Of a stretch of 64,000 nucleotides of DNA, positions 41,006 to 41,097 are shown one piece after another. The DNA comes from Escherichia coli (GTDB lineage Bacteria > Pseudomonadota > Gammaproteobacteria > Enterobacterales > Enterobacteriaceae): the NCBI RefSeq assembly GCF_045037415.1, contig NZ_CP173438.1; one strand, 5' to 3'. The notes below the pieces were generated by a model, which was given only the letters and a program-made list of their open reading frames with translations, was not told the DNA's origin and made no database searches. Within the stretch, counting starts at the first letter, position 1, and each line of letters opens with the position of its first letter. Both the position numbers and the translations under genes were made by a program.

Positions 41006-41021
41006 ACGCAAACGGTTTCGT
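41006..41021. promoter_or_regulatory. PurR operator (PUR box) in the purL promoter
   Basis: ACGCAAACGGTTTCGT matches the PUR-box consensus aCGCAAACGTTTtCnT; -10 TATAAT at 41039-41044. Confidence 0.75.
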
Positions 41022-41097
41022 CAGCGCATCAGATTCTTTATAATGACGCCCGTTTCCCCCCCTTGGGTACACCGAAAGCTTAGAAGACGAGAGACTT

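Follow-up and report, generated by a model that had tools for sequence, protein, structure and literature searches.

The PurR operator of purL in Escherichia coli: a PUR box at the -35 position of the promoter and its conservation in related Gammaproteobacteria

PurR operators of the pur genes

PurR is a dimer of the LacI/GalR family. A 2024 review describes it as a dimeric repressor that recognizes PUR boxes and has hypoxanthine or guanine as its corepressor. According to a RegulonDB evidence review, footprints support 17 PurR sites, and the sites classed as 'confirmed' are all found, glyA aside, in genes of de novo purine and pyrimidine synthesis. The ChIP-chip study of Cho et al. (2011; PMC3159470) located the PurR motif between the -35 and -10 elements in 14 of 32 regulated promoters, and reported that at purB and purR the protein sits inside the open reading frame, where it acts as a roadblock to elongation. 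These two sites share the repressor and the box consensus with purL, whose box, unlike theirs, lies upstream of the transcription start.

As comparators, we used five ChIP-verified pur promoters of strain MG1655, in which the gap between the box and the best -10-like hexamer was measured; among these five, only the -10 of purM has a transcription start record (PMC2760140). The gap was 0 nt at purH, 1 nt at purT, 7 nt at both purM and cvpA-purF (TAGAAT in each case) and 16 nt at purE, against 17 nt at purL. The gaps thus form three classes, of 0-1, 7 and 16-17 nt, and a range from 0 to 17 nt among the pur promoters means that PurR has no single geometry. The promoters of purMN, cvpA-purF, purHD and purT resemble that of purL in having a 16-bp box, in the same orientation, inside the core promoter and bound by the same repressor, but their box sits in the spacer and not over the -35. 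The promoter of purEK is also similar to that of purL: its ChIP-verified box, ACGCAACCGTTTTCCT, is followed after 16 nt by TATTCT and covers the -35 position, whereas its -10 is much weaker (4/6) and was assigned by inspection only. Together, purL and purE show the most upstream placement of the box, in which the box replaces the -35. In all six promoters (purH, purT, purM, cvpA-purF, purE and purL), the ACGCAAAC half of the box is upstream and the TTTNC half is on the side of the gene.

The site described here lies between mltF and purL in E. coli, within a stretch of 64,000 nucleotides that was analyzed as a whole (hereafter the window). The regulated gene, purL (41098..44985, + strand), is defined by its open reading frame and by the RefSeq annotation, and encodes a phosphoribosylformylglycinamidine synthase of 1295 aa; on the other side of the site, mltF is annotated in RefSeq on the minus strand and ends at 40840. 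Between 40838 and 41110 the window is 100% identical to K-12 MG1655, and published K-12 coordinates therefore transfer base for base. Of 5426 complete E. coli genomes, 5425 contain a match to a 701-bp query around the site, and strain SK1144 is 100% identical to it over all 701 bases; the 73-bp core (40990-41062) keeps an identity of at least 99% in 5386 of these 5425 genomes. The K-12-like context of the window is confirmed by Rfam matches at the gathering level, which comprise the GlmY sRNA just downstream of purL (45319-45466), an rRNA operon with 16S, tRNA, 23S and 5S (5728-10745), the rncO leader (32418-32632), the AsrC antisense RNA (28804-29635), OhsC (36044-36120) and RyfD (2592-2730).

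The operator and promoter of purL

The PUR box, that is the PurR operator, is ACGCAAACGGTTTCGT at 41006..41021. This 16-bp imperfect palindrome, read on the minus strand as ACGAAACCGTTTGCGT, differs from the published consensus ACGNAAACGTTTGCNT by 1 mismatch. Its central CpG (C 41013, G 41014; box positions 8-9) is invariant in 34 genera, and it is at this central step that the hinge helices of PurR are said to insert, a structural observation attributed to Schumacher et al. in 1994.

A position weight matrix (PWM) was trained on 26 of the 28 PurR motifs listed in Table 1 of Cho et al. (2011; PMC3159470), the purL and glyA motifs being left out because both are inside the window. With this matrix, the box ranked first in the 64-kb window with 22.1 bits. 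The 26 training sites themselves scored between 12.3 and 25.2 bits, which places the purL box towards the upper end of the scores of genuine PurR sites, and its score was above the best score of each of 200 random 64-kb sequences simulated with a first-order Markov model (mean 15.4, sd 2.0, max 21.2 bits). The glyA operator came second with 21.4 bits, and the next unrelated match reached 12.2 bits.

Short motifs are generally frequent, and the search for the consensus with at most 3 mismatches, which returned in the window only the purL box and the known glyA operator, yields a count that has no significance on its own. One could thus imagine that the box and the TATAAT downstream of it match by chance and have no regulatory role. 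We regard such a coincidence as virtually inconceivable, since the PWM score exceeds that of all 200 random windows; since a TATAAT, of which the window holds 14 occurrences on both strands, would start 16-18 nt after a given site with a chance of about 3e-4; since box, -10 and spacing are near-invariant over 34 genera while the flanks vary; and since occupancy of the site by PurR has been published from ChIP-chip (Cho et al., 2011; PMC3159470). The ChIP-chip data, the PWM score, the conservation of the spacing and the phylogenetic footprint rule out a chance origin.

Two further sites in the window were also noted. In the hmp-glyA intergenic region, AGGTAATCGTTTGCGT (51019-51034; 21.4 bits) lies 119-134 nt upstream of the glyA ATG and is identical to the glyA PurR motif published from ChIP-chip (Cho et al., 2011; PMC3159470). 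The second, TTGAAATCGTTTGCAT in its minus-strand reading (49168-49183; 12.2 bits), precedes the glnB ATG by 68-83 nt and falls within the 3' end of glrR. A weak glnB operator of PurR was reportedly described by He et al. in 1993, and TTGAAATCGTTTGCAT is probably this operator. The score of this candidate is below the random-window maximum, and glnB was not detected by ChIP-chip (Cho et al., 2011; PMC3159470).

For purL, Table 1 of Cho et al. (2011; PMC3159470) gives a PurR ChIP-chip region at 2,693,490-2,693,714, with a log2 enrichment of 1.88 with adenine and no value without adenine, and occupancy in vivo is thus dependent on the corepressor. The motif reported for this region, ACGAAACCGTTTGCGT at 2,693,642-657, is the exact reverse complement of the box (PMC3159470). 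The same authors call purL a 'previously characterized PurR-binding promoter region', assign the peak to it alone, and list it as a target of repression by PurR-hypoxanthine (Cho et al., 2011; PMC3159470). Compared with the annotated purL operator of K-12, nothing differs: it is the same site, equal in sequence and in motif coordinates, carried by another E. coli strain. This site is the operator annotated in E. coli K-12 from He et al. 1990, Meng et al. 1990 and RegulonDB. The 1990 study of He et al. reportedly used footprinting and lacZ fusions, and found both in vitro binding of PurR at purL and repression of purL in E. coli. The site is therefore already known, a well-characterised textbook PurR operator, and does not constitute a discovery. 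We conclude with high confidence that it is the E. coli purL operator of PurR, repression at the -35 region of the promoter being the best explanation of the data.

In Yersinia pestis, deletion of purR increased purL expression by log2 1.90 at 26 C and 2.83 at 37 C. As the Yersinia loci in our comparative set have a box and a spacing identical to those of E. coli, derepression of purL has been shown in a purR mutant of a genus with the same architecture. These data also bear on the identity of the repressor. Another member of the LacI family whose operator has an AAACG core, RbsR or Cra, might bind the box instead of PurR or beside it, given that the central AAACGTTT core is common to LacI/GalR operators and that RbsR is reported to bind some purine gene promoters. 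We consider this highly improbable, since the PurR-specific ChIP enrichment responds to adenine (PMC3159470), since 22.1 bits against a training range of 12.3-25.2 bits corresponds to the upper range of real PurR sites, and since purL is derepressed by the purR deletion in Yersinia.

The first-pass annotation had described a PUR box in the -35 region, about 15 bp upstream of the TATAAT of purL. The box ACGCAAACGGTTTCGT at 41006-41021 does lie upstream of this hexamer, which has the full consensus (6/6) and occupies 41039..41044 on the + strand (-13..-8 relative to the mapped start), but the gap between them, measured from 41022 to 41038, is 17 bp and not about 15. A sigma-70 spacer is canonically 17 bp long, so that TTTCGT (41016..41021, + strand), the six bases with which the box ends, falls exactly on the position of the -35 hexamer. 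This hexamer, which has 2/6 matches to TTGACA, is wholly within the PUR box, and the earlier assignment of the box to the -35 region was thus right. Within the 17-nt spacer (41022..41038, + strand), the first 10 nt vary between genera and the last 7 (GATTCTT; GATTCTY across genera) are conserved. Downstream of the -10, a G+C-rich discriminator, GACGCCC (41045..41051, + strand), is moderately conserved. Such G+C-rich discriminators are linked to ppGpp/DksA sensitivity.

The transcription start is taken from Table S1 of Mendoza-Vargas et al. (2009; PMC2760140), where the purL 5' end is located at -46 from the start codon and paired with the -10 TTTATAAT. In this dataset, the start was assigned to a -10 written 'attcTTTATAATgacg' ('10_S70'), no -35 was given, and the purL 5' end corresponds to one 454 read of the lowest quality class, 3 (PMC2760140). 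Transferred to the window, the start is the G at 41052 (+ strand), which follows the TATAAT by 8 nt and precedes the ATG by 46 nt, and the box therefore extends from -46 to -31 and is centred at -38.5. The 5' end published from this single 454 read is accordingly downstream of the TATAAT at 41039-41044, as expected if that hexamer is the -10. Its context is typical of a start, with C at -1, G at +1 and a distance of 8 nt from the -10, inside the 5-9 nt expected of a sigma-70 promoter. For this start, the supplements of Kim et al. 2012 list neither purL nor a matching coordinate, and no match was found in Ettwiller et al. 2016.

The consensus promoter scan, in which at least 4/6 matches are needed in the -35, did not call the purL promoter: TTTCGT (17 bp), GTTTCG (18 bp) and TTCGTC (16 bp) each match the sigma-70 -35 at 2/6 positions. 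The same scan returned no other promoter-like site on the + strand of the mltF-purL intergenic region. As the scan demands at least 4/6 in the -35, we did not accept this miss as evidence against the purL promoter. A weak -35 is a feature of many genuine promoters of E. coli. Here it lowers the fit to the consensus and not the promoter call, which, with only 2/6 matches in the -35, depends on the -10, on the one read and on conservation.

Directly upstream, the box adjoins a partly conserved AT-rich block, GATTTTATTTCC (40994..41005, + strand; -58..-47), within which GATTTTATTTC is nearly fixed in the Enterobacteriaceae. The consensus of the distal UP subsite is said to be AWWWWWTTTTT, after work attributed to Estrem et al. 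in 1999, and the block agrees with 9 of the 11 positions of this consensus. From this resemblance, we infer that the block is possibly a distal UP-element subsite, which may compensate for the weak -35.

Conservation of the purL upstream region

Orthologs were searched in one genome per species by converting an N-terminal peptide of PurL (12 aa) into a degenerate DNA pattern. From the matches, 113 purL upstream regions were usable, and each of them precedes a genuine PurL N-terminus. A PUR box of at least 15.4 bits was present in 86/86 loci of the Enterobacterales, Pasteurellales and Vibrionales, and no PUR box was found in the 27 outgroup loci (max 8.7 bits), among them Pseudomonas, Stutzerimonas, Idiomarina, Aliidiomarina, Fibrobacter and Opitutae. 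Box and -10 are separated by exactly 17 nt in 62/62 loci of the Enterobacterales and in 3/3 of the Pasteurellales, a count that includes Proteus, where a TATACT is found at 17 nt beside an overlapping hexamer. In all 65 of these loci, the -10 is TATAAT or TATACT.

Information content was then computed with one sequence per genus over 34 enterobacterial genera, and is given as mean bits/column. The two highest values were those of the PUR box (-46..-31) and the -10 hexamer (-13..-8), with 1.95 each. Between them, the first 10 nt of the spacer (-30..-21) had 0.45 and its last 7 nt (-20..-14) 1.25. Upstream of the box, the values were 0.70 in the AT-rich block (-58..-47) and 0.16 in the far upstream region (-91..-59); downstream of the -10, they were 0.87 in the discriminator (-7..-1), 1.27 at the transcript start (+1..+10) and 0.26 further downstream (+11..+23). 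A spacer of fixed length and free sequence between two invariant blocks is what would be expected under the constraint of a promoter, and it supports the view that the TATAAT is the functional -10 and that the box is at the -35 position. Judged from these alignments, the geometry of box and -10 is under selection.

The variability of the spacer is also relevant for mltF, the divergent gene. A minus-strand site, CTGACG-18-TAAAAT (41024..40995), has the box in its spacer, so that the box could also, or instead, control a promoter of mltF. This site is a 9/12 match in the consensus scan, and its -10 (ATTTTA on the + strand, 40995-41000) is within the AT-rich block conserved in the Enterobacteriaceae. 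However, the CTG of its -35 corresponds to purL positions -30..-28, which vary between genera (major-base fractions 0.82, 0.41, 0.47), 0.6 such scan sites are expected by chance in the region, and a second sigma-70-like candidate (40949..40921, minus strand) is nearer to mltF. Moreover, the tables of Mendoza-Vargas et al. that were searched (PMC2760140) contain no mltF/yfhD transcription start, and the ChIP peak was given to purL alone by Cho et al. (PMC3159470). Control of mltF by the box thus appears very unlikely. The CTGACG-18-TAAAAT site itself is probably a chance match, as its -35 falls on non-conserved positions.

In the Vibrionaceae, the orthologous purL is also preceded by a PUR box, ACGCAAACGGTTGCKT (16-25 bits), upstream of a TATAAT. 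However, the distance between the box and the -10 is 29 nt in 20/21 loci and 27 nt in one, against 17 nt in E. coli; with 29 nt, the box is shifted upstream by 12 bp. A conserved GTTACRTCAC was observed between the box and the -10 of these loci, which gives the arrangement GTTACA-18-TATAAT, as well as an A-tract upstream. The vibrio box is therefore upstream of the -35-like GTTACR, at about -57..-42, which represents a different placement of the operator for the same gene.

Mechanism of repression and the purL leader

The repression of purL would proceed as follows. When hypoxanthine or guanine is abundant, the complex of PurR with its corepressor binds the 16-bp box at 41006-41021. As the -35 hexamer is entirely inside the operator, the bound repressor would take the DNA needed by region 4 of sigma-70, and it probably also covers the position of the proximal alpha-CTD. 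Initiation at the only detectable purL promoter would then be blocked. When purines are scarce, PurR would leave the box and the promoter would fire on its perfect -10, perhaps with the help of the AT-rich block at -58..-47.

The first-pass annotation had gone further and presented this as the geometry expected for PurR repression by promoter occlusion. The overlap of the box with the -35 is in agreement with that proposal, but this arrangement is not the sole one expected for PurR, and it is from the position of the box that we infer the blocked step to be the binding of RNA polymerase. PurR and RNA polymerase could also bind together, the block then falling at a later stage (isomerisation or promoter escape, for example), or PurR could act mainly by displacing the alpha-CTD from the AT-rich block. 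Contacts with sigma region 4 may indeed matter little at so weak a -35 (2/6), the UP-element-like block adjoins the box, and the Vibrionaceae, with a box upstream of a separate -35-like hexamer, indicate that overlap with the -35 is not required of a purL PUR box. On the other hand, the spacing is fixed to the base pair in 65/65 loci, which fits a box that also serves as the -35 region, and the box at -46..-31 is well within the DNA normally covered by RNA polymerase. In Cho et al. (PMC3159470), positions of this kind are likewise taken to mean that initiation is controlled. A later block thus seems unlikely, and occlusion of the -35 region by PurR is the reading that we retain.

Two conserved elements of the region, GATTCTY (-20..-14) and the +1 block GTTTTCCCC, are not explained by the model of PurR and -10. 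The first, GATTCTT in E. coli (41032-41038), has 1.25 bits/column and an invariant T at -18, and does not contain the TG motif of an extended -10. The second, GTTT(T)CCCCC at +1..+10 (41052-41062), is conserved over the 34 enterobacterial genera with 1.27 bits/column, against a background of 0.16. To our knowledge, no function has been assigned to this conserved start of the purL transcript. It opens the 46-nt 5' leader of purL (41052..41097, + strand), which starts with the conserved GTTTCCCCCCC, ends with the conserved ribosome-binding region GAAGACGAGAGA, and matched no family in the Rfam search.

We consider it possible, if rather unlikely, that GTTT(T)CCCCC and GATTCTY encode a second layer of purL control in the Enterobacterales, independent of PurR. 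The start of the purL transcript resembles that of carAB P1, GTTTGCC, which undergoes UTP-sensitive reiterative transcription, and by analogy a UTP-sensitive reiterative transcription could possibly take place on the GUUU start of purL. In the papers searched, only a general review and an unrelated CRISPRi study name purL together with reiterative transcription, and neither appears, by its title and abstract, to bear on this possibility. Another possible form of this control is a pairing of the 5' terminus with the region of the start codon (GUUUCC:GGAAAU), which could affect mRNA stability or translation. A 6-bp helix between the 5' end and GGAAAU at the start codon is possible in 30/34 genera, and folding pairs these two regions in about two thirds of the genera; in the control of this helix, an equal or longer alternative pairing was available in 18/34 genera, and both partners are invariant.

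Other features of the leader were observed. Just upstream of the purL ATG, GAAGACGAGAGA (41082-41093) is almost unchanged from Escherichia to Yersinia and is found in a degenerate form in the group of Proteus, Providencia and Photorhabdus; as far as the alignment indicates, its conservation exceeds the needs of a Shine-Dalgarno sequence. An extra hairpin is present in the middle of the leader in Erwinia, Serratia, Brenneria, Dickeya, Pectobacterium, Leclercia, Tatumella, Rahnella and Edwardsiella, where the sequences of the stems differ between genera and complementarity is kept. With no U-run after it, this hairpin is not an obvious terminator. The purL leaders of E. coli, Citrobacter, Klebsiella and Cedecea do not have it.

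The value of this analysis is partly one of calibration, as a textbook operator and its promoter were recovered from a reading of the sequence only. The site can be used as a positive control for PurR scans, all the more as the window also contains the glyA operator and probably that of glnB. The modest comparative detail added here is that two orders of Gammaproteobacteria keep the same distance from box to -10, without a base pair of variation, and that the placement differs in the Vibrionaceae. [quoted passage not shown]
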